Of a stretch of DNA of 64,000 bases, positions 8,957 to 55,821 are shown one piece after another. The notes under the pieces were generated by a model. It did not search any database and had not been told where the DNA came from. It saw nothing but the letters and a program-made list of their open reading frames with translations. Every line of letters starts with the position of its first letter. The stretch's first letter is position 1. The stretch lies in contig OZ253496.1 of the NCBI GenBank assembly GCA_965262115.1, forward strand, positions 1,835,054-1,899,053. The letters are read 5' to 3'. Origin of the DNA: Nitrospinales bacterium. Lineage in GTDB: Bacteria > Nitrospinota > Nitrospinia > Nitrospinales > VA-1. A program made the translations under genes and the position numbers.

Positions 8957-9040
8957 TTAGCCGTAAATTAGCCAAAAAGCAACGGCTAAAATCACACTTG
9001 GCTAATAAATGACTAGCCGCAATATAGCCATAATTTAGCC
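8957..9040. promoter_or_regulatory. Array of seven TAGCC/GGCTA pentamers, 11-bp phased, upstream of fic
   Basis: TAGCC at 8958, 8969, 9014, 9025 and 9036 (11-bp steps within each group). The inverted form GGCTA lies at 8984-8988 and 9000-9004. The array starts immediately 5' of the fic start (8953, minus strand). Confidence 0.5.
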
Positions 9041-9119
9041 GATTAACCCATCCTCGCGGCAGGGGGGCAACGAGCAATAACCCCCTCAAGCCGAGACAAA
9101 CATTTCTAGCAAATAAAAG

Positions 9120-11092: not shown

Positions 11093-12052
11093 GTGGGCCA
11101 TTTCCGTATTCCCCCATTTCTGAAACTATCCCTTGTGCTTTTGGGACTCCTGTTTGCCGGGTGTGGCACCGTTGACCTGGAAATTCGCCACGGTAGCACA
11201 AATACAGGCTTGCAACCCCGATCGGTAGCCATTTTGCCCTTCACCCTTGAGGAGCCGACTCATGAAAAAGTTGCTCCTCACGACCTGTTCCGAGACTGTT
11301 TTTACAATTATTTCAGTTTTCTCGGTTATGTTGACCTCCCCCTGGAAACCATTGACCAAAAATTACTGCAGGCAGGCCTGACCGACAATAAAAAGATTTT
11401 AGAGTTGAGCCCTGAAAAGCTTCGGAAAATCCTGGGCGTTGACGCGGTGATTCGGGGCCGTGTTTTATCCGCCAGCAATTTCACCGGCGGCATTCATGCG
11501 GAAACCTCCCTCAAAGCAAAAATTGACATGCTTGATCTGAGAACAGGAGATGTTCTCTGGGAAACGGAACATAAGGAAATGACCTATTCAGGAATCCTTT
11601 CCCCAACGATTATCGAGATCATCCAGAGTCAAATGGACAACGTAAAAGTAAACCAGGCTTACTTCAAAACAGCCGAGATGTTTTCGATCAACATGATGAA
11701 GGAAATTCCCGACCCTGCTGACAGCTGGAAAGAGGAAATTCGCCTGCCGAAGATCATCAGCATTGAAACCAACTTGAAACCGAGCCTGAAACTGAAACCC
11801 GATGACCGGATCTATGTGAACCTGAAAGGCGACCCAGGACTGACCGGGTACTTCGGTATTGGAAGCTGGAAATCAGACATACCTTTAAAAGAAATCGTGC
11901 CCGGACTCTACACCGGAAGCTACACCGTAAAAGCTTCTGATGATGTAAGCAGTTCTTTGATAATCGGCACTCTGAAAAACAAAAACGGCCTCACTGGAAA
12001 AAAGTTCTACAAAGACGGCATGGCCCAGTTTGATCGTTCATCCACACACTAA
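11093..12052 (+). CDS. Lipoprotein, DUF799/LpoB-like N-domain plus C-terminal beta-sandwich-like domain
   Basis: GTG 11093 follows AGAAAGG. Lipobox LLFAGC. VAILPF....E.....LF.....Y....GY.......I...L......LGVDAVIRGRV...........A.IDMLDLRTGDVLWE. Confidence 0.7.
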   Translation: MGHFRIPPFLKLSLVLLGLLFAGCGTVDLEIRHGSTNTGLQPRSVAILPFTLEEPTHEKVAPHDLFRDCFYNYFSFLGYVDLPLETIDQKLLQAGLTDNKKILELSPEKLRKILGVDAVIRGRVLSASNFTGGIHAETSLKAKIDMLDLRTGDVLWETEHKEMTYSGILSPTIIEIIQSQMDNVKVNQAYFKTAEMFSINMMKEIPDPADSWKEEIRLPKIISIETNLKPSLKLKPDDRIYVNLKGDPGLTGYFGIGSWKSDIPLKEIVPGLYTGSYTVKASDDVSSSLIIGTLKNKNGLTGKKFYKDGMAQFDRSSTH

Positions 12053-45116: not shown

Positions 45117-45220
45117 CCTAGGCGGAGTACCTCCGCTGGGTAGTGGCAATGGCTTTTTACCGCTAGCAACAATTCTCTTTGCCTAACGGGTTCCTGCTAG
45201 TTGGCTCCACGCCTAGTGGT
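45117..45220. repeat. MITE-B copy overlapping the nadA stop codon
   Basis: CTAGGCGGAGTACCTCCGCTGGGTAGTGGCAATGG...CTGCTAGTTGGCTCCACGCCTAGTGG. CTAG is present at both ends (45117-45120 and 45213-45216). On the minus strand nadA ends ..CAC TAG within it. Confidence 0.8.
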
Positions 45221-46223
45221 AATGGAACATCTGGTTGACGCATTGGAGGGCGCGCTGCTGGGTTTCCGGGTCGAGGGTGATGGTGTTTTCTGGACCGGGG
45301 TTTTCGAGGACGTTGAGTATACCTTCCAAAGAATTGGACTTCATATATTTGCAGAGTGTACAACTTCCGGCAAAGGTTTTTTGCGGGAACTCGGATTGCA
45401 GAACACCGGTCAACCCGCACTCCGTCACCAGAAAAAAGGAGTCGCCGCTGGATTCTCTTACATGGTTGAGCATCTGGCTAGTGCTTCCCACATAATCGGC
45501 CTTACCCACCACCGAAGAACTGCATTCGGGGTGAACGAGAATTTCCACACCCTCAAAGTTTCTCCGCACCTGGTCTATACTTTCCGGCTGATATTCTTCA
45601 TGAACGTAGCAGGTGCCATCCCAGAGCTGGATATCCTTATTCAGACCCTTGGATTTGAAATGGTTGATCACATTTTCACCCATGAGCCGGTCGGGCAGAA
45701 AATAAATCTTGTTATTGGGAATTTTTTCAATAATAGAGTAAACATTCGAAGAGGTGACGCACACATCACACTGGGCTTTCACCTCGGCGGTCGTGTTGAT
45801 GTAGCAAACGAAGGTGTGATCGGAAAACTCTTTGCGGAGCCTTATGACATCTTCTGCCGTTATGCCGTCGGCCAGGGAGCAACCGCCATTGGGATTGGGA
45901 TCAAGCACAGTTTTTTGAGGATTGAGAATCTTGGCGGTCTCAGCCATAAAGCGCACCGCCGCAAAAACGATGACATCGGCATTGGATTCCTTAGCTTTTT
46001 TCGACAGGCCATAAGAGTCGCCGGTGTGATCGGCAACACTGTAATAAATTTGCGGCGCGACATAATTATGCGCGAGGATGATGGCATTTTTTTCGCACTT
46101 GAGGTATTCAATCTTTCTGATGGTGGGTAGCAACAACTCGCAATTTTCCTGAGTGAACTTGCAAATAGGATTGCCCACCTGAATATCTTTAAGCTTTTCG
46201 TATAATTGTTCTGCGGTAACCAT
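45213..46223 (-). CDS. nadA: Quinolinate synthase
   Basis: ILAHNYV..QI....AD..GDS..LS, VFAAVRFMAETAK and CxxC..M blocks (GSCTLCKYMK). Confidence 0.93.
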   Translation of the reverse strand: MVTAEQLYEKLKDIQVGNPICKFTQENCELLLPTIRKIEYLKCEKNAIILAHNYVAPQIYYSVADHTGDSYGLSKKAKESNADVIVFAAVRFMAETAKILNPQKTVLDPNPNGGCSLADGITAEDVIRLRKEFSDHTFVCYINTTAEVKAQCDVCVTSSNVYSIIEKIPNNKIYFLPDRLMGENVINHFKSKGLNKDIQLWDGTCYVHEEYQPESIDQVRRNFEGVEILVHPECSSSVVGKADYVGSTSQMLNHVRESSGDSFFLVTECGLTGVLQSEFPQKTFAGSCTLCKYMKSNSLEGILNVLENPGPENTITLDPETQQRALQCVNQMFHYH

Positions 46224-46411
46224 AAGTTTTCCTTACCGGCATGGGCGGCGAACCGCCGCTGGCAACTAGCAATATCTTTTATCTTGCCTCAAACGGTTTC
46301 TCGGCTTAAGGACAAGCAGTCAAACAATGGCTCTTTAAGCCGAGACAACTCTTTGCCAGCCAAACAAAGCTATTGCTCATCATGGTCCAGCGTCACGCTG
46401 GCGCCAAGTGG
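46224..46411. repeat. MITE-B-like palindromic element filling the nadA / HIT intergenic gap
   Basis: GGCGGCGAACCGCCGC hairpin, TGGCAACTAGCAATA, TTCTCGGCTTAAGG...CTTTAAGCCGAGA inverted pair, AGCTATTGCTCATCATGG and CCAGCGTCACGCTGG hairpin. Confidence 0.75.
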
Positions 46412-46756
46412 CTAACCCGGCGGCCAGTTCATGGCGCGACCGCCTAAAAGATGATAATGAATATGATACACCGACTGCCCGGCCCCGGCACCACAATTGA
46501 CCACCAACCGAAACCCTGATTTATCGAGGCCCCTTTCCTTCGCCAGTTGGTTTGCCACACTGATCACCGAACCCATCAACGTATGATCCTTCTCCTCGAC
46601 ATCCAGCAAGGTAGCCTGATGGATTCGAGGGATGATCAGGATATGCGTAGGAGCTTGCGGGTTAATATCATTGATCGCGAACAAGGCGTCCGATTCATAA
46701 ACCTTATCTGAAGAGATGGTCCCCTCGCTGATTTTGCAGAACAGGCAATCACTCAT
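46412..46756 (-). CDS. HIT-family (histidine triad) nucleotide hydrolase
   Basis: CLFCKI and the triad HIHYHLLGG. The start overlaps the pafA stop by 8 nt. Confidence 0.92.
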   Translation of the reverse strand: MSDCLFCKISEGTISSDKVYESDALFAINDINPQAPTHILIIPRIHQATLLDVEEKDHTLMGSVISVANQLAKERGLDKSGFRLVVNCGAGAGQSVYHIHYHLLGGRAMNWPPG

Positions 46757-48251
46757 AAGGTTTTTTTCCGCGTCGCTCCGGGTTTCCTATATCCTGTTTA
46801 TTTTCCTGGTGGGGCAGAGAATCAAACTGCTCAAGATGCTCTATAATTTCTTCTTTATAGGAGATAAATGGATCGAGCATCAGAAACGGTTCGTCAGTTT
46901 TACTCAGGCGAAATCCGATCCAGTCTATGAGATAACCCATGTGGGAATGCTGGTTCATGAGCCTTTTAACAAGCTCTCCCCGGCCATGCGCACGGGTTCC
47001 TCTTGGAGGATTGACTTTTGAGAAGTCGACAGCCTCATCGGTAGTTTTGCGGTAACCATCGCCACTGGCTTCCAATCCCCAGAACAAACCGGTTTCCTTA
47101 TTCAGGTTATGGTATTCCAGATCCAGGCTTTTGAGCCAGGGGTCATGCCATTCCAGGTTTTCTTCGTTTCTAAACTCGTTGAGCATCCAATACTTGCTGG
47201 CCCAGTCCACTCGGCCGATCACCGCTTCCGGTCCTTTAGGTAAATCGGCCAAGACCGATTCCCAGCCCTCCAGAATCCAGCCGGTCTCCCGATTTGTCCC
47301 GGCCAGATGTTCCTTACAGGTATTTAAAATATCCCATTGCAGCTCCAGAGCGGTGGAAGATTTTCCCGAAGCCAGCTTCACCTCCCATTTAAAATCCGGA
47401 TCGCGGGAAATGGAACGCATGGCAAAAACCGAGTCCGCAAGAATCCATTCCCGTTTGGCGACGCCCAACTGCATGATTTCCAGCATGAGGGTTGTGGTTC
47501 CCATTTTCATGGCGGTGGCAAACTCACTCATCGTCGAGTCACCAACCAAAAGATGAATGCGCCGGTATTTGCTCGGGTCCGACAATGGCTCGTCGCGGGT
47601 ATTGACAATCGCCCGGTTATATTGCACCCACCGGTAAAATTCATTGGGAATATGGTCAGCCCTTTGTGACAGCTGAAAGTTCACCTCATCGCCCTGGTTT
47701 TCATAAGGCGTGATGCCATCCCAATCCCGAAACGGGTGGGGATCGCAGGAACCGATGCGGCCCGCACCGCAATAAATCAGTCGAGTGGTTAAAAAGGAAG
47801 AAAGCAGTTTCAGGTTGTCGCGCTCATCGAAAGGGAATCCTCTACTGACCAGATAATTCTCGTGGCAGCCGAACGTCGCGCTGGTTTCAAGATCCACATT
47901 GTTCTTGATGAACGAAACATGATCGGCCCAGCCCAACTCCTCTACCGCTTCCTGAATCAGCGTGTCGCCGGCGCGGTCAAAAGTCACCAGGTCAACAAGA
48001 TTGGAACATTCCGGAGAGGCGTATTCCAAATGCCCCATGTCGAGATACAAGCGCCCACCGTTAAGCAGAAACCCGCCGTTACCGGGGGGCTCATCGTTAG
48101 CGCGGTAGTGAAGGTCCAGCACACCATGATTTTTTGAGAAAACATGGTTCTTGACCTTGTTGGCCACTTCCATGGAATCGAGAGGGAACTCTGTATCATT
48201 TTTGATCAGCAGGCCGTATTCCGTTTCGATACCGTAGATGCGCTTTTTCAT
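46749..48251 (-). CDS. pafA: Pup/UBact ligase PafA homolog
   Basis: IYGIETEYGL and NGGRLYLDMGHLEYASPE match the PafA pattern GIETEFG / NGARLYLDVGSHPEYATAE (from memory) better than the Dop pattern. Confidence 0.85.
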   Translation of the reverse strand: MKKRIYGIETEYGLLIKNDTEFPLDSMEVANKVKNHVFSKNHGVLDLHYRANDEPPGNGGFLLNGGRLYLDMGHLEYASPECSNLVDLVTFDRAGDTLIQEAVEELGWADHVSFIKNNVDLETSATFGCHENYLVSRGFPFDERDNLKLLSSFLTTRLIYCGAGRIGSCDPHPFRDWDGITPYENQGDEVNFQLSQRADHIPNEFYRWVQYNRAIVNTRDEPLSDPSKYRRIHLLVGDSTMSEFATAMKMGTTTLMLEIMQLGVAKREWILADSVFAMRSISRDPDFKWEVKLASGKSSTALELQWDILNTCKEHLAGTNRETGWILEGWESVLADLPKGPEAVIGRVDWASKYWMLNEFRNEENLEWHDPWLKSLDLEYHNLNKETGLFWGLEASGDGYRKTTDEAVDFSKVNPPRGTRAHGRGELVKRLMNQHSHMGYLIDWIGFRLSKTDEPFLMLDPFISYKEEIIEHLEQFDSLPHQENKQDIGNPERRGKKPYE

Positions 48252-48270
48252 TTCAGGGTGCCTTTTATAT

Positions 48271-49071
48271 TTAACCTCTCTTAAGAGAGGATTTACATAG
48301 TTTCGCCAGATCCTTATCGTTCAAAAACTGGTACCCCGCCTCGGTGACCAATGCCACGGTAGGAAAAATTTCATCTTCCGGACGGGCTTTGCCGGTTGCA
48401 GAATCAAACTGTGCCGCAGTCTGCAAAAGCCGGATGGCCAAGGTGACCGCATCGCTTTCCGACCTTTCTACCAGAGGCTTTTCTCCCCAGAGGTCTTCAT
48501 GTTCCAGAATTCCCCGAATGGTCGGCGAACCAGAGCCGGTCGCGGTATGGGTGCTGATCCTGAAATCGGCTCCCAACATATCGTAAAAATGTATCGCCGC
48601 CTTTTTAGATTTCAAATCATAAGTGGCAAATATAGGACTCACCGCGCCCAACCCCTGCACCGCCATCCCGACATTCTCTTTCAGCAGTTTTGATAAGGCG
48701 CGGATTTTCCCTTCCACACTCATGGTCTGCATCTGCGACCGCCGGTAGTATTCAAAATTATGCGTGAGAACCCGTGCCATCTCGAAAGCCGTAGCAGGAA
48801 CCCCGGCAATCGCCATGAGCGTATAATCGTCGATGGGAATGACCTTGTCGCAACGTTCATACATGATACTGTTGCCCGCCGTGGCCCGTCGGTCCCCGGC
48901 AACAATCACGCCATTCCTAAAGTGGAAGGCGAGAACCGTGGTGCCCTGCGTTACTGCAATGCCGCTTGGCGCCTGCGAAGAATCAATGCGGGTATGCCAG
49001 CGATAGCCGGATTTTTCCAGTAGCTCGAAAAAATCTCCGGGCGAAGTATGAGGATCTGTTTGAAAACTCAT
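48271..49071 (-). CDS. prcB: Proteasome beta subunit with propeptide
   Basis: A propeptide is followed by ..TQG/TTVLAFHF (Thr1 after Gly), then GDRRAT.G and IAGVPA. The start ATG overlaps the stop of the small upstream ORF (ATGA). Confidence 0.9.
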   Translation of the reverse strand: MSFQTDPHTSPGDFFELLEKSGYRWHTRIDSSQAPSGIAVTQGTTVLAFHFRNGVIVAGDRRATAGNSIMYERCDKVIPIDDYTLMAIAGVPATAFEMARVLTHNFEYYRRSQMQTMSVEGKIRALSKLLKENVGMAVQGLGAVSPIFATYDLKSKKAAIHFYDMLGADFRISTHTATGSGSPTIRGILEHEDLWGEKPLVERSESDAVTLAIRLLQTAAQFDSATGKARPEDEIFPTVALVTEAGYQFLNDKDLAKLCKSSLKRG

Positions 49072-49244
49072 TGACCGGTTCTCTGTTTGTATTTTTCAGA
49101 TTGTTTCGGGTCCACCTTTTTCATCCGCTTCAAAAGATTATCCTTTCCCGGCCGTGAAGGTTCCGGGCTGGAAGGGCCGGAATCATCGCGATCTGGACTG
49201 GTTTCTTTTTTTTCTTCCCTTCTCAGGGGATCATTCATTTCCAT
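49068..49244 (-). CDS. Pup-like prokaryotic ubiquitin-like modifier (UBact-type), 58 aa, absent from the ORF track
   Basis: My translation of the minus strand is MEMNDPLRREEKKETSPDRDDSGPSSPEPSRPGKDNLLKRMKKVDPKQSEKYKQRTGQ. AAAGGAG lies 8 nt upstream. It ends in Gly-Gln like Pup (..YVQKGGQ) and shares the D.LL..h..V...Y.Q..GQ pattern. It sits between prcA and prcB, with its stop overlapping the prcB start. Confidence 0.8.
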   Translation of the reverse strand: MEMNDPLRREEKKETSPDRDDSGPSSPEPSRPGKDNLLKRMKKVDPKQSEKYKQRTGQ

Positions 49245-49294
49245 GGGATCAACTCCTTTTGTTGCCAGGCCGTTTCTGCCTCTTCACCCGAGCA

Positions 49295-50029
49295 TTAACC
49301 GACCGATGATTTTAACTTACCAATATCTTCTTTCGTAAGCGCTCTGTAAATGGCTCTTCGCTCCACCTTTCCCGATAACACGGCGGCCTCAAGATACCAT
49401 TGATCAAAAGCCTCTTTCAAAGTCTTGGGCATATTTTCATCGTCTTCTTCCTGCTTTCTACTTTCATCCCAAAGGTGGCAGGTTTCCTTTAAAGCTTTAT
49501 TCAGCGGAAACGTCGCAAAGGGGGTATCCTGAATTTTTTTCTGCACCTCCTCCATGACTTTTTCATTACCGGCGATAACGGTTCCATTTTTAAATGTTTC
49601 CCAATGTCCATCATAGTTCACACGAAAAAAGTGAGGATGGCCATCACCGTCCAGTTCAGCAAGAAGAAGGCGAATGATATAAGGAGCCCGTTGGATTTCC
49701 TCAAAATTCTGTTTGAGTGCGGGAGCGATGCCAAACTGCAGCAACCTTGCCAATGTCACATCTTGAGCCGAACGGTTGAATCCTTCCAGATGCGCCATAT
49801 CCAAAAGCGTCATGCGCAGCCGTTCCACATCAGCAGGGTGACCCACGCCGCCCAGGGCGATGCGGTCATAGACTTCGAATATTTTTCCCGGCTGGGGAGC
49901 AAACCCCATAATCAGCACCCCTTCATTGAAAGGAACCGACAATACCGGCTGACCCATTTTCAGCTTTTCCTGAACATAACTGTGGCGGGTGGAAACCGCT
50001 TCCATCCAGCGATACGGCTCTTCAAACAT
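49295..50029 (-). CDS. prcA: Proteasome alpha subunit
   Basis: The Ntn-fold layout lacks a Thr1 site. KIFEVYDRIALGGVG and FFRVNYDGHW parallel actinobacterial PrcA (ISELYDRVGFAAAG, LYRITYDGS). Confidence 0.85.
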   Translation of the reverse strand: MFEEPYRWMEAVSTRHSYVQEKLKMGQPVLSVPFNEGVLIMGFAPQPGKIFEVYDRIALGGVGHPADVERLRMTLLDMAHLEGFNRSAQDVTLARLLQFGIAPALKQNFEEIQRAPYIIRLLLAELDGDGHPHFFRVNYDGHWETFKNGTVIAGNEKVMEEVQKKIQDTPFATFPLNKALKETCHLWDESRKQEEDDENMPKTLKEAFDQWYLEAAVLSGKVERRAIYRALTKEDIGKLKSSVG

Positions 50030-50113
50030 TTTTAACTGTCCCCTCTAGTCCCATAGCGAGTTTTCCCTTAAAATGAGGATACTTAAAAACCCCTTCACTC
50101 TTCCTCTGTTGTG

Positions 50114-51574
50114 CTAAACCAGTTGTTTGCTGGAGTTGAGAATCTCTTCAACCTCTTCGGAGCCAATGACTCCGGTCAAATCGAGAATCTCTCCGTTCAT
50201 AAACTCAACTCCGGTCCAATGAATGCTTTTTATTTTCTCCGCTCCTTGAGCCACCGCCTGCCCTCTTATCTGGGCACGGGTTCCTGTTGGAGGCGACTCA
50301 ACAGCCCGGGCGATTTCTTCTTCACTGAGCAGGGAATAAACATCCCCCTCCTGCTGCAATCCCAGATACAATCCGCGATCAGGGTCCAGATTATGGTATT
50401 CCAAATCCAGGCTCTTGAGCAAGGGGTCCTCCCAGCCAATGCCCTCGGACTGCATGAACCCGGTAAATAGTTTTTCCTTGATCGCCCAGTCGATGCGATC
50501 CGAAAGTTTTTCCGGACTGTGCCGAAGTTCATCCAGTGTCTTTTTCCATTCCGCAAGAATCCAGTCCCACTCGCGATCCTTTCCGGCAAAGGCTTTTTCT
50601 ACCGCCTCTAAATACGCTTCCTGAATCTCAAGAGCCGTGATAGTACCACTAGTCTTGCGACGTAAAACTGCAGTTTTGTCGAGAGACACTCTTAACACAT
50701 CGGCCACTGGGTCCGCCAATTCCAAATGGAGAAGTTTCTCCTCACGGGCGATCAGATTGAGAACCAGCGATGTACTCCCCACCTTCAGGGCCGTGGCATA
50801 AGCGGACATATTGGCATCGCCGAGAATTAAATGCAAACGCCGATACCGACTGCTCACCGCATGCGGTTCGTCCCGGGTATTGATGAGGGGACGCTTCGTC
50901 ATGGTCTCGATGCTTAAAACTGTCTCGATAAAGTCGGACCGCTGGGCCAACTGCAACCCCTGAAAATCACTAGCGTTTTCTGATCCCACTTTTCCTGCCC
51001 CGGCATACAACTGGCGCGTCACCAGAAAAGGAGCCAGCCCTTTTACCACATCTTCGAAGGGAGTTTCTCTGGGGATGAGATAGTTATCATGAGTTCCATA
51101 ACTATGGCCGCTGTAATCGGTATTATTTTTGAACACCTGAAGCGGTTTGCCCTCCAGCTCGCGGTTGCGAATGGCCACGCATTCGGCGACAATCCGCTCG
51201 CCCGCCACATCGTGCGCAACCAGAGATAACACCGACCGGCATTCCGGGGTGCTGTATTCTGGATGAGTATGATCATTATAAAACCGGGCACCATTTGTCA
51301 AAACCCGGTCGCACTTCATATCTAAATAAGAATAAGGCCTTTTACGATCTTCGGCGCAAAAGGCATCTTCTTCTTCATCCTGAGCCAAAGACCCCACCCG
51401 AAACCCACGCATATCCAGATGCGAGTTCTCCTGCGAGTAGGCCCATTTGCCAAACACGCTTTTGCGTTCGCAGGCCTTTAAAAGTTTCATGGACTCTTCA
51501 ACCGGGTCGGAATTTTCCATATCTTCCCGGACTATCCCATACTCGGTCTCCATACCCAGGAGAGAAACACTCAT
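50114..51574 (-). CDS. dop: Pup/UBact deamidase-depupylase Dop homolog
   Basis: LLGMETEYGI and VLTNGARFYNDHTHPEYSTPE match the Dop pattern ([21 protein letters not shown], from memory). It sits next to mpa as in actinobacteria, and its start overlaps the mpa stop. Confidence 0.85.
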   Translation of the reverse strand: MSVSLLGMETEYGIVREDMENSDPVEESMKLLKACERKSVFGKWAYSQENSHLDMRGFRVGSLAQDEEEDAFCAEDRKRPYSYLDMKCDRVLTNGARFYNDHTHPEYSTPECRSVLSLVAHDVAGERIVAECVAIRNRELEGKPLQVFKNNTDYSGHSYGTHDNYLIPRETPFEDVVKGLAPFLVTRQLYAGAGKVGSENASDFQGLQLAQRSDFIETVLSIETMTKRPLINTRDEPHAVSSRYRRLHLILGDANMSAYATALKVGSTSLVLNLIAREEKLLHLELADPVADVLRVSLDKTAVLRRKTSGTITALEIQEAYLEAVEKAFAGKDREWDWILAEWKKTLDELRHSPEKLSDRIDWAIKEKLFTGFMQSEGIGWEDPLLKSLDLEYHNLDPDRGLYLGLQQEGDVYSLLSEEEIARAVESPPTGTRAQIRGQAVAQGAEKIKSIHWTGVEFMNGEILDLTGVIGSEEVEEILNSSKQLV

Positions 51575-53187
51575 ATGATAGACCTGCGAATCGTGTTTTC
51601 GGTGGCCCTATCCGATTCTCTGGGCTTTCTCACCCGCACAACATTTTTTGATTCCATATCCAAAAGCTGAAGCCAGTCTTCCATATTGGATTCCGCAGGA
51701 AGCAGGTTGCCTTCCTCAAATTCAGCCTCCAGTGAAACAATAAGATCGTCCACTGTCATACACAGCGTTTCACCCTGAATCGCCCGTTCAATGGATCTCT
51801 CTTTAGCGCGTTTCATGATTCCCTCAATAACCGCACCGGAAATGAAATCGTTCCAGTACAGTTTTTTGGTGCCGCCGCTTCTTAAAGTCAACACCAGCAC
51901 TTCCTGTTCCGAACTGCGGTCAAACAGGCGATCCAGAAATGGTTCGGCCATGGCGTCAAAATCTTCATGTTCACGGGGCAATCCGTCTTTCAGGTAAACA
52001 CGCAGGATAGCTTTAGACTCTTCACGGTTGGGGCGCGACACTTTGATCTTTCTGTCAATTCTGCCGGGCCGGATGACAGCCGGGTCGATCAGGTCGGGCC
52101 GGTTGGTCGCCAGAATCACTACCGTTTCGCGAAGGGATTGGATGCCATCCATCTCCGCGCAAAACATGGGGACCACCGTGTTGCTGATGTTCGATCCGCG
52201 CCACGCCTGCCGGGTTCCCAGAATGGATTCCGCTTCATCTATAAATATGAAAGGAATCTGACCTTTTTCTTTATAGTCCCGGGCTTTCTTAAAAATTTCA
52301 CGGATTTTACGTTCCGATTCCCCCAGCCACATATTGAGGATCTCCGGTCCTTTGACATGAATAAACCGGCCCTGCAGTTCGGAATTTTCCTGCTCGGAAA
52401 GTTTGCGGATCACTTCGGTGAGAATCGCTTTTCCTATGAGAGTTTTTCCGCAACCCGGAGGACCATAAAACAAAAACCCTTTGGGCACCTGATATTCCAT
52501 CTGGCTCAGAATTTCTTTGTGCAGGAGCGGATATTCGAGGACTTTGCGCACCTCTTCTTTTACTTTTTCCTGTCCGCCCACCTGTGACCATTCCACATGT
52601 TCATAATCATCTTCGACCAGAGTGCGGGACTCGCGTTTAGAAAGTTTTCCTAAAATAACCCTTTGGTTACTGTCGAGAAAAATTTCTTCCCCCTCTTTCA
52701 GCCCGGTTTCATCCAGACCCTCTCGGACCAAAACAATCGTCTCGGTATTGCCGGTCGCCGCCTGCACCAGCCATTGCCCACCGGCAAGCTTTCCGGAAAT
52801 TTTTGCTAGTGCCCCCTGAGTGGGAAAAGGTAGTAGGGCAATCACCACAAATCCTTCATTGAGCGCGACCTGATCACCGGTTTTCAATCCCTCATTTTCC
52901 GTAAGTTCCGGGACGACCGCAGCCTGGTATTCCGTGCCTCCGGAAACCAGACGCACCAGACCGTCCTCCCCCTGACCAAGAATCGTGCCGATGCGATGGG
53001 CGGGAGACTTTAACTTTTCAATGGCTTCCTCCAAGGTCTTGATTTTCAACGCATACTGCTGGGCAGACTGCTGGGCCTGAAACATGGCATCCCTGAGATC
53101 AAGAATTTTTTCCTGCAATTGGGGTCGATCCTGGGTTTCATTTAAAACCTGGTCGATCAACTCTACAATATGGGTCGGGTCTCCCAT
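51571..53187 (-). CDS. mpa: Proteasome-associated AAA+ ATPase (ARC/Mpa family)
   Basis: N-terminal coiled coil, OB-like region, Walker A GPPGCGKT, Walker B FIFIDEAE, and the second region of homology. The C-terminus reads ...TIRRSII, with no Tyr-containing HbYX/GQYL tail. Confidence 0.9.
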   Translation of the reverse strand: MGDPTHIVELIDQVLNETQDRPQLQEKILDLRDAMFQAQQSAQQYALKIKTLEEAIEKLKSPAHRIGTILGQGEDGLVRLVSGGTEYQAAVVPELTENEGLKTGDQVALNEGFVVIALLPFPTQGALAKISGKLAGGQWLVQAATGNTETIVLVREGLDETGLKEGEEIFLDSNQRVILGKLSKRESRTLVEDDYEHVEWSQVGGQEKVKEEVRKVLEYPLLHKEILSQMEYQVPKGFLFYGPPGCGKTLIGKAILTEVIRKLSEQENSELQGRFIHVKGPEILNMWLGESERKIREIFKKARDYKEKGQIPFIFIDEAESILGTRQAWRGSNISNTVVPMFCAEMDGIQSLRETVVILATNRPDLIDPAVIRPGRIDRKIKVSRPNREESKAILRVYLKDGLPREHEDFDAMAEPFLDRLFDRSSEQEVLVLTLRSGGTKKLYWNDFISGAVIEGIMKRAKERSIERAIQGETLCMTVDDLIVSLEAEFEEGNLLPAESNMEDWLQLLDMESKNVVRVRKPRESDRATENTIRRSII

Positions 53188-53436
53188 GAATAAGTCCTTT
53201 ATTTTGGTTGTGAACTCAATTGTATGAACAAAAAATTTTATAAATCAAGTCAATTTTCTCAAAGGTTTAGTAGAGAAAACCTTGTCATTATATTAGGATG
53301 GAAGCTTCTATTGATTATTGTCCTGAAAAACTTTCGCTCAAATTTTTCGTATTCCCACAGAGCCCGGCATAATCCCAAGTGGCACCAAGACCACCTTTAA
53401 CACGAAAGTGATTTCTGACAACAAGTTTTTGATTCT

Positions 53437-54747
53437 ATGACCTTTGCGAACAACAAAACCCCTATCGAAAAATGCATCATCAGTTTCAGCCATAACAAAT
53501 ATTCCACCCGTAAAGAAGCCGATGCGGTGAGCCTTGCCAAGGCAGAACGTGAAATTGCCGCTGGGAAAAATGGCATCAGCCATCTTCTTCTAAGAGCTGA
53601 GGATGACGACATTGATCGACTGAAATTTCTTTTTTTGATCCGGGGAATTCCTATCATGTGTTACGCGCTGGGGAACCTAATGAACTCCGGCTTGCGCGAA
53701 ATCGTGGTCGTCGGCTCTGAGGAAGTCAAAAAAGTTATGGACCGCTTCCTCGACATTGTTGGCACCTGCGGAAAAACCATCCGGTTTGTCCGGGAAGATA
53801 CCCAACACCTCAATCTGGTCCACACCATGAATCTGGGCCGGGAGTTGCTCTCTCCTTCACCCGATGAACTGGTTCTGTTCCAACCCGGCGACCTGCCTTT
53901 CCTGTACGATTTGGAAAAAGTATTGTGCTTGCCCGACAACAAAAAATATAACCTGGTGCTCTGGTTGAACTCCCGACAAACGATGTTCCCGGATTTTGCA
54001 AAGAATCCGGACAGTGAATTTGTCAAACGCAATTACCATTACCGCTCTTTCAGCGAAAATGAAGCCAGCCTGCTGGATCTTAAAGAACCTAACTTATATC
54101 CCATTAACTTTGCAATGATGGATTCGGATATCATTGACCGCCTGCACTCTTCCCGCAAGGACGGACAAATAATTCACGCGGGCATCCAAATCGCTTTGCA
54201 AAAACCCTTACGCTTACTCAAAGTTCTGCCTTATGTCATGGACCATCTGTTGACGTTCCGAATAAATGTAAACCGTATCAGACCCGGCGACCGGTATCAT
54301 TTCGGCATGTCCCGAAAAAATTTCCATAAAGGTATCTCCCGCTTGCTCAATACTCCCCTGACCACCACGTTGCACGACGACCCGGCTTTCGTTTCCGATG
54401 TCGATGCATTGGAAGATTGGGAAGATTTTGAGTCTCTCACCCATCATGCGGAAAAAACCCATGGCCAGGAGGGACTGGAGACCATCCACCCGTTTGGACA
54501 ATCCCTGACCCGGTTTCGTGAAAAGGGCATGCCTCAGTTGAAAACAGAGATTCCCATGTATCGGGATTTTCCTTCCTACCTCAACTCTATTTATGAAACG
54601 CTCAAGATGGGTTATGTGCCCTTTGACAGGGACAACCAATACATCTCGCCCAACGCGAACTTGAAAGAAGTGGGGTTCGCATACCACTGGTATAAACAAA
54701 AATGTGCACGTCTGAAACAAACTCATGAGAACCGACAACAGGCCTGA
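53437..54747 (+). CDS. Hypothetical protein with an N-terminal MobA-like nucleotidyltransferase-fold region
   Basis: IRGIPIMCYALGNLMNSGLREIVVVGSEEV...LFQPGDLPFL resembles NTP_transf_3/MobA-like proteins, but the G-rich LAGG..R loop reads LLLRAEDDDIDR. The C-terminal 250 aa are unassigned. Confidence 0.5.
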   Translation: MTFANNKTPIEKCIISFSHNKYSTRKEADAVSLAKAEREIAAGKNGISHLLLRAEDDDIDRLKFLFLIRGIPIMCYALGNLMNSGLREIVVVGSEEVKKVMDRFLDIVGTCGKTIRFVREDTQHLNLVHTMNLGRELLSPSPDELVLFQPGDLPFLYDLEKVLCLPDNKKYNLVLWLNSRQTMFPDFAKNPDSEFVKRNYHYRSFSENEASLLDLKEPNLYPINFAMMDSDIIDRLHSSRKDGQIIHAGIQIALQKPLRLLKVLPYVMDHLLTFRINVNRIRPGDRYHFGMSRKNFHKGISRLLNTPLTTTLHDDPAFVSDVDALEDWEDFESLTHHAEKTHGQEGLETIHPFGQSLTRFREKGMPQLKTEIPMYRDFPSYLNSIYETLKMGYVPFDRDNQYISPNANLKEVGFAYHWYKQKCARLKQTHENRQQA

Positions 54748-54864: not shown

Positions 54865-55821
54865 ATGCCAAAATCGTGGCAGGGCAATAGTTTATTGAAC
54901 CTAACCCGATTATCCGGGTTTATCCTTTTATCGGTGGGCATTCACATAACATCGGTGATCGCCTACATGGTGATCCCCGTCGCGAAAGAAGAAGTAAAGG
55001 GACCTCCCCCTATCCGGATAAAATATATCGAACCGGAGAAACCCCTGGCCGCCAAAGGTGGCCGAATCATCGATACGCCGACGCCACCCAAAAAAATCGA
55101 GAAGCCCAAAAACAAAGATCTGCTGGCAAAATTTGACAGCCGAGCCCATTTCAATATCAAAAAGAAAACTGCAAAAACCTATCAGCGCAAAAAAACCGTG
55201 GTGCCGAAATCGAAAGGGTCGGTGGGCAAAACAGGTGCCGCGCCCGTTCGAGAAAAGAAAGTCGCACGCAAACCGCAAAAACGTGCCGCGATTGAGCCGG
55301 GAAGAAAACTCCTGCCGGAATCAGATATTGGAAAATATAAATCCGTTACCCGGGAAAAACCCAAACCCACGATGTCCTCCGCCAATCCCAAGGCAGGCAC
55401 AGGTAGCGCCTTGGCTCTTCTGGACGGGTTTGACCCCGAACCCTTCGCATCGCTCAGCACAGAGGATCTCGAAAACATCGATGATGACGAACCGGTTTCC
55501 CTCGATACAACAGAAGTCAAATACGCTTCTTATTTCGCTAGGATCAAGCACCAGATTGAACGGGTATGGATTTATCCCACCGAAGCGGCGCAACGCGGCA
55601 TCAGCGGGGATATCACTTTGACATTCAGAATTTCCAAGGACGGCAACCTTCTGGGAGTGCGGCTGTTGGATCAATCAGGCTATGAAATTCTGGATGTGGC
55701 CGCGCTCAAAGCCGTGAAGGAAGCGGCCCCCTTTTATCCCTTCCCGGCAACCATTGACCGGGAGAGGTTATCCATCCAAGCCAATTTCGTTTACACCCCC
55801 CAATTCGAACCTGCCCACTAA
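54865..55821 (+). CDS. tonB: TonB-family energy transducer
   Basis: N-terminal TM, a Pro/Lys-rich spacer and a TonB_C domain (YPTEAAQRGISGDITLTFRISKDGNLLGVRLLDQSGYEILDVAALKAV). The stop TAA lies inside a repeat. Confidence 0.85.
   Translation: MPKSWQGNSLLNLTRLSGFILLSVGIHITSVIAYMVIPVAKEEVKGPPPIRIKYIEPEKPLAAKGGRIIDTPTPPKKIEKPKNKDLLAKFDSRAHFNIKKKTAKTYQRKKTVVPKSKGSVGKTGAAPVREKKVARKPQKRAAIEPGRKLLPESDIGKYKSVTREKPKPTMSSANPKAGTGSALALLDGFDPEPFASLSTEDLENIDDDEPVSLDTTEVKYASYFARIKHQIERVWIYPTEAAQRGISGDITLTFRISKDGNLLGVRLLDQSGYEILDVAALKAVKEAAPFYPFPATIDRERLSIQANFVYTPQFEPAH

Follow-up and report, generated by a model that had tools for sequence, protein, structure and literature searches.

The stretch of DNA analysed here, 64,000 nucleotides (nt) from a Nitrospinales bacterium (contig OZ253496.1, positions 1,835,054 to 1,899,053; hereafter the window), carries on its minus strand an operon for a small protein modifier, the enzymes that would attach and remove it, an AAA ATPase and a 20S proteasome. 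On its sequence, this locus is the UBact conjugation-proteasome operon of a marine, Nitrospina-like member of the Nitrospinaceae (Nitrospinota), an already described kind of system; Lehmann, Udasin, Livneh and Ciechanover (BBRC, 2017) reportedly described UBact for several Gram-negative phyla. We assign a probability of about 0.8 to the joint reading that the system is UBact, that its gene order is specific to its lineage and that the HIT hydrolase gene at its downstream end is a neighbour without a functional link. A preliminary description of the same DNA had called it a complete operon of Pup-proteasome type. The complete set of modifier, ligase, deamidase, ATPase and 20S genes was borne out, as all families were assigned by Pfam and NCBIfam profiles, and so were the seven genes, their order (mpa, dop, prcA, modifier, prcB, pafA and HIT), the three start/stop overlaps and the ATPase end ..TIRRSII. 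The Pup assignment was not, because the modifier is UBact by both PF20513 and NF033388. The features of the operon, in window coordinates and amino acids (aa), were as follows.

51571-53187, minus strand: UBact-type AAA ATPase (Mpa/ARC homologue), 538 aa; PF17758, PF16450 and PF00004
51574-51621, minus strand: C-terminal tail of the ATPase, RESDRATENTIRRSII, ending Ile-Ile; proposed 20S-docking motif
50114-51574, minus strand: Dop-like deamidase/de-conjugase, 486 aa; PF03136 at 508 bits
49295-50029, minus strand: 20S proteasome alpha subunit, divergent, 244 aa; PF00227 at 31.8 bits
49068-49244, minus strand: UBact modifier, 58 aa; PF20513 and NF033388
48271-49071, minus strand: 20S proteasome beta subunit, 266 aa; PF00227 at 102 bits
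46749-48251, minus strand: PafA-like UBact ligase, 500 aa; PF03136 at 420 bits
46412-46756, minus strand: HinT-like HIT hydrolase, 114 aa; PF01230 at 83.5 bits

The modifier matched PF20513 at 71.8 bits (cutoff 27.8) and NF033388 at 73.8 bits (cutoff 35). These UBact models were its sole Pfam or NCBIfam matches at E <= 0.01, and no Pup model matched it. Its C-terminus reads KQRTGQ. Because the protein ends in Gln, deamidation would be expected before ligation.

To compare the locus with others, diverse representatives of the PafA family were collected and 30 of them were aligned, and the alignment was used to fetch 80 loci with 10 kb on either side, each GTDB species being represented by one genome. 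Five further loci were added through exact-protein look-ups. With the eight window proteins as phmmer queries, we annotated the open reading frames (ORFs) of all loci, which are designated below by L numbers. The set spans Nitrospinota, Nitrospirota, Latescibacterota, Poribacteria, Verrucomicrobiota, Armatimonadota, Abditibacteriota, Bipolaricaulia, Methylomirabilota and Actinomycetota. An R-[TS]-G-[QE] end like that of the window was present in the UBact ORFs of 46 related loci, and the closest relatives of the window PafA were all from Nitrospinota, with a Nitrospina sp. at 81% identity. The terminal residue of UBact was Gln in Nitrospinaceae, Verrucomicrobiota and a few others, and Glu in most Nitrospirota, Poribacteria and Armatimonadota; both the Gln-ending and the Glu-ending groups nevertheless had a Dop-like gene.

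The enzymes and the proteasome subunits had the features expected of their families. The first of the two ligase-family paralogues scored 428 bits with the Dop model TIGR03688 against 352 bits with the PafA model, and relative to its PafA paralogue it carried a 30-residue insertion in the Dop-loop region, so that ETEYG and HxEYxxPEC lie 95 instead of 65 residues apart. In the ATPase, a coiled-coil-like N-terminal region preceded two OB domains and an AAA module whose Walker A (GPPGCGKT, 242), Walker B (FIFIDE, 313) and pore-loop (WLG, 287) motifs were all intact; residues 19-521 of this protein aligned to residues 54-586 of Mycobacterium tuberculosis (Mtb) Mpa. The beta subunit had a 43-residue propeptide and a G/TT processing site (GTT at residue 43) that would turn Thr44 into Thr1, and the alpha subunit was divergent, yet colinear with the Rhodococcus and Mtb alpha subunits.

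By homology with the actinobacterial Pup-proteasome system, UBact would be made with a C-terminal Gln, which the Dop-like enzyme would deamidate to Glu; the same enzyme would also remove conjugates. The PafA-like ligase would then phosphorylate the UBact Glu with ATP and join UBact to substrate lysines. A hexameric AAA ATPase would capture UBact, unfold the substrate and feed it into an alpha7-beta7-beta7-alpha7 20S core.

How the ATPase would engage that core is the part of the mechanism on which its C-terminus bears. The window ATPase ends in ...TENTIRRSII with Ile, a non-aromatic residue, at the penultimate position, which confirmed that it is without the aromatic penultimate residue of the GQYL/HbYX type. 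It had also been called tail-less, and this did not hold: the unaligned tail extends about 17 residues past the last Mpa-aligned position (521 of 538), comparable to the 23 of Mtb Mpa (586 of 609), and it has a conserved aliphatic end. We compared ATPase ends in 36 non-redundant UBact-type proteins, which represent more than eight phyla and take in L066 and L080, where UBact is encoded at a different genomic site, and in 13 Pup-type proteins. Ile or Val was final in all 36 UBact-type ATPases and the last two residues formed an aliphatic pair, [IV][IV], in 35, the remaining one ending in Thr-Ile (SII, SVI, QII, QIV, PVI, NII, GVV, RVI, SVV, AII, GVI and one GTI). Another conserved C-terminal motif thus stands where the docking tail had been described as missing. 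All 13 Pup-type ATPases, from Actinomycetota and from a second system type in some Nitrospira, ended in [QH]Y[LF] (QYL, HYL or HYF). The linker ahead of the last two residues was variable among the UBact-type ATPases and these two residues were conserved, which places the selection at the extreme C-terminus. We found neither the aliphatic C-terminus nor the alpha-pocket substitutions given below described in the accessible literature including reviews; the search on UBact returned passing mentions only, and the 2017 primary paper, which possibly noted the ATPase C-terminus, lay outside it.

In Mtb, cryo-electron microscopy and mutagenesis showed that Tyr608 of the GQYL motif hydrogen-bonds PrcA Arg26 or Glu119, that the carboxylate of Leu609 pairs with Lys52 and that Gly606 contacts Asp144 and Ser146 (PMC9599533, PMC11953334). 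The corresponding columns were read from an alignment of 62 alpha subunits (40 UBact-type and 22 Pup-type), with the Mtb PrcA numbering verified on PDB 3h6f_A (248/248 identical).

Mtb Lys52: invariant in UBact-type and Pup-type (62/62 alphas); window K49
Mtb Asp144: invariant in UBact-type and Pup-type (62/62 alphas)
Mtb Glu119: Ile/Leu/Val in 40/40 UBact-type, Glu in 21/22 Pup-type; window I118
Mtb Arg26: variable in UBact-type, Arg/Lys in 21/22 Pup-type; window M25
Mtb Glu121: Lys/Arg in 37/40 UBact-type, Glu in 21/22 Pup-type; window R120

The lone Pup-type exception at positions 26, 119 and 121 was L034, which is in fact a UBact-type locus truncated by the end of its contig. When tail and pocket were paired by locus, alpha 119 was Glu together with a penultimate Tyr of the ATPase in 13/13 Pup-type loci, and was Ile, Leu or Val together with a penultimate Ile or Val (one Thr) in 33/33 UBact-type loci. 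Inside the UBact clade, no pattern of covariation was found between alpha 119 (I/L/V) and the penultimate residue (I/V).

These residues suggest that the UBact-type pocket is remodelled and still used, with carboxylate anchoring retained and the tyrosine hydroxyl partners exchanged for a hydrophobic surface. The aliphatic tail would dock its carboxylate on the alpha-pocket lysine, and the penultimate aliphatic residue would sit in the remodelled pocket, where the Glu119 and Arg26 positions turned hydrophobic or variable; we rate this arrangement at nearly even odds. The wider proposal, that UBact-type ATPases dock to and open the 20S core by [IV][IV]-COOH as a second solution orthogonal to the HbYX/GQYL rule, is a tentative one that we hold to be slightly less probable than its opposite.

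Alternatively, the aliphatic end may be no docking motif and be conserved for another reason, with the ATPase binding the 20S core by other surfaces (beta-grasp hairpin to H0 helix) or working as a stand-alone unfoldase. Such surfaces exist in Mtb, where the contacts of the beta-grasp hairpin with the alpha H0 helices are functionally important (PMC8755798, PMC9599533). Against this alternative, the ATPase gene is operon-linked and translationally coupled to the conjugation and 20S genes across phyla. A penultimate Tyr is described as the main binding determinant of proteasomal ATPases (PMC8755798), so that an ATPase lacking it could have lost this way of docking, and alpha R26 is variable without a consistent replacement; against the alternative also stand the last two ATPase residues, conserved despite the variable linker, and the pocket itself, with Lys52 and Asp144 invariant in all 40 UBact-type alphas and Glu119 consistently aliphatic. 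Weighing these points, we consider it unlikely that the aliphatic end has no part in docking.

If docking by the aliphatic pair is true, the orthogonal motif could prevent cross-talk between UBact and Pup machines where both occur; in this set, both types were seen among Nitrospira species representatives. The species representatives of Nitrospira/Nitrospiraceae carried either a UBact-type or a Pup-type locus (L061, L063, L065, L075 and L083 versus L010-L024, L047 and L053). In the Pup-type Nitrospira loci the ATPase ended in GHYL or GHYF and the alpha subunit had E119, and each ATPase/alpha pair retained its own motif.

The gene order of the window is the second lineage-specific element. The canonical order mpa-dop-UBact-prcB-prcA-pafA was found in about 30 UBact loci of six phyla, including those of Nitrospina watsonii (L001) and the Nitrospinaceae L004, L008 and L009, while the order prcA-UBact-prcB occurred in the window and in L003, L005, L006, L007 and L036 only (PafA 81-89% identical). 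The order had been noted as different from the actinobacterial one, and this difference is real; the placement of alpha before the modifier is, however, not general but limited to the window and these five related assemblies. The presence of pafA inside the operon had been presented as a special departure as well. It proved to be the norm, with pafA adjoining the 20S genes as a rule in the UBact loci of six phyla (Nitrospinota, Nitrospirota, Latescibacterota, Poribacteria, Armatimonadota and Bipolaricaulia). In Verrucomicrobiota (Chthoniobacterales, Udaeobacter; L025-L033, L048, L066, L068, L071 and L080) the system was split, with mpa-dop on other contigs and pafA either alone or with UBact-prcB-prcA 1-2 kb downstream.

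Three of the related assemblies carried a second beta gene, prcB', between dop and prcA (L006, 7441-8193; L007, 7348-8148; L036, 7347-8147). Its GTT/Thr1 site was intact, and its product shared 50-56% identity with all PrcB proteins of Nitrospinaceae and about 40% with those of Nitrospirota. The dop-prcA gap of L005 (3322-3529) contained a remnant of the 5' end of prcB' (tblastn 59% over 34 aa, E 6e-12; blastn against L007 80% over 70 nt), which indicates that prcB' was lost by deletion in the L005 lineage. The alpha-first order is thus probably a derived rearrangement of one Nitrospinaceae subclade, by duplication and then loss: a duplication of the 20S module would first have given dop-prcB'-prcA-UBact-prcB-pafA, and prcB' would later have been deleted in some lineages, including that of the window. 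According to a 2026 review (PMC13022661), Rhodococcus erythropolis is apparently the only bacterium that has multiple alpha/beta types; the prcB' relatives have one alpha gene and two beta genes.

Most of the relatives are metagenome-assembled genomes, and L003 is rich in N's and has, inside pafA, a suspicious repeat of 30 nt from the UBact 5' region, so the alpha-first order or the ATPase end might be thought an artefact of assembly or sequencing. The order was identical in six independent assemblies (the window, L003, L005, L006, L007 and L036), and the ATPase ORFs were full-length with C-termini conserved in 36 loci; the probability left to an artefact is negligible.

The gene at the downstream end of the operon encodes a HIT domain well above the PF01230 cutoff (21.5 bits), with the triad HxHxHxx as HIHYHLL at residue 98. 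Its best NCBIfam model was the purine nucleoside phosphoramidase NF007965, at 107.7 bits and under the cutoff of 206. HIT followed by nadA lay downstream of pafA in 10/10 Nitrospinaceae loci and only there. The 42 UBact-type loci outside Nitrospinaceae had no HIT gene within 10 kb, and none of the Pup-type loci examined had one next to pafA; a single further HIT gene, that of L049, lay about 2.6 kb upstream of mpa and on the other strand. When the ORFs within 3 kb downstream of pafA were clustered for 52 loci, no gene was conserved across phyla, and HIT and nadA formed clusters in Nitrospinota only.

The spacing of these genes differed between the two Nitrospinaceae groups. In those with canonical order the pafA-HIT spacer was 157-228 nt and the HIT-nadA spacer 2-5 nt; in the pafA-HIT spacer of N. 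watsonii, a terminator-like hairpin directly followed pafA and a promoter-like site preceded HIT, while a simple scanner returned no such signals in L004 and an opposite-strand promoter-like match only in L009. The 8-nt pafA/HIT overlap was present in 5/5 complete loci of the window's subclade (window, L003, L005, L006 and L007) and only in that subclade, where HIT-nadA spacing was 1-23 nt in L003, L005 and L006 and 188 nt in the window (the nadA start of L007 was not resolved). At 1-23 nt from HIT, nadA would be equally coupled by spacing. HIT and nadA are probably a housekeeping pair that adjoins the operon and is no component of the system, with HIT probably co-transcribed in the window: collapse of the pafA-HIT spacer in the subclade would have drawn the pair into the transcription unit and coupled HIT translationally to pafA. 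The coupling that had been described is thus real as an 8-nt overlap, and the linkage is absent from the 42 UBact-type loci beyond Nitrospinaceae. From the comparison of loci, the pafA-HIT coupling would imply no functional link.

A nucleotide- or acyl-phosphate-acting partner of PafA had been suggested for HIT, and in this lineage it could serve as a ligase accessory that, for example, proofreads or recycles a nucleotide-linked by-product arising from PafA/Dop chemistry. The overlap kept in the five subclade loci, the position of HIT downstream of pafA in all ten Nitrospinaceae loci and the window HIT gene, which has no obvious Shine-Dalgarno sequence and so may depend on pafA translation, are consistent with this. 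However, such a partner is missing from the 42 other UBact-type loci and from beside pafA in the Pup-type loci, and in canonical Nitrospinaceae the two genes are separated by 157-228 nt, with terminator- and promoter-like signals in N. watsonii and HIT always tighter to nadA. HinT enzymes act on nucleoside-monophosphate (NMP) conjugates via a His-NMP intermediate and need a nucleoside 5'-monophosphate leaving-group partner. The PafA/Dop intermediate is a gamma-glutamyl phosphate, an acyl phosphate without a nucleotide, so the proposed chemical link is weak. A role of HIT as accessory is not supported, appears already largely refuted by the comparative data and is in our estimate very improbable.

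The overlap is reached through a K/R/E-rich, poorly conserved C-terminal extension of PafA that runs into the HIT start. This extension was found in the window's subclade only and has 15-20 residues, more in L003; the PafA proteins of the canonical relatives have 485-487 aa. An origin of the extension as a fused UBact fragment was considered and held for L003 only, as local scores were not significant for the window, L005, L006 and L007. The L003 extension scored 87 against UBact, versus 33 ± 6 in shuffles. In L003, 30 nt of the 5' coding part of UBact (9035-9065) recur exactly inside the pafA 3' extension (about 11460-11490), where they are read in frame as PLIREEKKESSPD. This copy was not present in the window pafA, and it may be a micro-duplication or a misassembly in a contig rich in N's.

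Within the window, the start/stop overlaps read from the sequence were ATGA for mpa/dop and for the modifier/prcB and ATGAGTGA (8 nt) for pafA/HIT. Four-nucleotide ATGA overlaps are ordinary in bacterial operons and have no special meaning. The intergenic gaps were 84 nt (dop-prcA), 50 nt (prcA-modifier) and 19 nt (prcB-pafA), and no terminator-like sites were found between the operon genes. The features around the operon were as follows.

53219-53262, minus strand: candidate operon promoter, two overlapping sigma-70-like matches 30-75 nt upstream of the ATPase start
45213-46223, minus strand: nadA (quinolinate synthase), NF006878 at 336 bits (cutoff 294); outside the system
46224-46411: 188-nt HIT-nadA spacer, absent in close relatives
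53437-54747, plus strand: divergently transcribed gene of a 436-aa protein with weak nucleotidyl-transferase similarity (PF12804 at 19.9 bits, under cutoff)
54865-55821, plus strand: 318-aa ORF

The promoter-like matches, TTGAGA-16-TAAAAT (10/12) and TTGATT-18-TACAAT (9/12), come from consensus matching alone, and the number of promoter sites in the region (12) was not significant against shuffles (7.5 ± 3.2). The HIT-nadA spacer would form a long, imperfect hairpin (-66 kcal/mol, z -2.28, mildly structured). It had no plasmid match, and for an NAD+ riboswitch or other RNA there was no Rfam match at gathering score in the whole window and a local match at chance level only. Judged by ORF positions and lengths, the 318-aa and 436-aa ORFs seem conserved in their place upstream of the ATPase gene, and in N. 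watsonii and L004 the gene corresponding to the 318-aa ORF carries TonB_C/TonB_2 domains.

Several observations count against the joint reading or its parts. Five core proteins of the window scored under the NCBIfam equivalog cutoffs: the ATPase (TIGR03689, 383 against 504.75 bits), Dop (TIGR03688, 428 against 492.3), PafA (TIGR03686, 318.5 against 551.3), alpha (TIGR03691, 59 against 139.05) and beta (TIGR03690, 162.6 against 191.9). The second ligase paralogue was nearly tied between the PafA model (318.5 bits) and the Dop model (303 bits). No experimental UBact conjugate, ligase activity or UBact-type proteasome was found in the accessible literature, outside which the 2017 primary paper lies, and no UBact-type component, neither ATPase nor alpha subunit, is represented in the PDB, so the whole mechanism rests on homology. 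The tail/pocket correlation divides two clades, which amounts to about one evolutionary event, and would also fit drift that followed a loss of tail docking. A remnant of prcB' was not found in the 84-nt dop-prcA gap of the window, for which we infer duplication and loss. Finally, the 8-nt overlap is conserved in the five complete subclade loci, where co-expression of HIT is real and could have acquired a function.

Recent reviews (including PMC13022661) still treat bacterial proteasomes as a feature of Actinomycetales and Nitrospirales that is docked through GQYL. The comparison with 50-odd loci shows that, in a widespread second lineage, the aromatic docking residue and the pocket residues that pair with it have been exchanged systematically. 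The aliphatic terminus and the alpha-pocket changes are family-wide, not specific to the window, and suggest a non-HbYX docking rule that, if true, would add to the principles by which 20S cores are engaged by AAA unfoldases. With the comparison, a tempting but unsupported link between HIT hydrolases and Pup-type ligases also falls away.

With the UBact loci described in 2017 the window shares the RTG[QE] modifier end, Dop-like and PafA-like paralogues, a double-OB AAA ATPase and clustered 20S genes; its subclade differs in having prcA before UBact and a pafA C-terminal extension that overlaps the HIT gene, and three sister genomes differ in their second beta gene. The actinobacterial Pup-proteasome has in common with the window the enzyme families, the ATPase architecture, the 20S core, the logic of deamidation followed by ligation, and the pocket residues Lys52 and Asp144. 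In contrast, the window has a UBact modifier, an ATPase end of [IV][IV] rather than GQYL and scores under the equivalog cutoffs, and UBact-type alphas have Ile, Leu or Val for Glu119 and a variable residue for Arg26. The window HIT protein resembles HinT-type phosphoramidases in its HIT domain, the HIHYHLL motif and its length of about 114 aa, but differs in its sub-equivalog score and in its position overlapping pafA, which is peculiar to the subclade. Compared with the HbYX activators (PAN, Rpt2/3/5, archaeal Cdc48 and Blm10/PA200, and Bpa/PafE with GQYL), the UBact type shares a flexible C-terminal tail on a ring-shaped activator and a conserved alpha-pocket lysine for the terminal carboxylate, whereas its penultimate residue is aliphatic and not Tyr. 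An aliphatic-ended C-terminus is also what activates HslV in the case of HslU (..SRFIL), and the resemblance of the UBact-type tail to that of HslU is a lead only.

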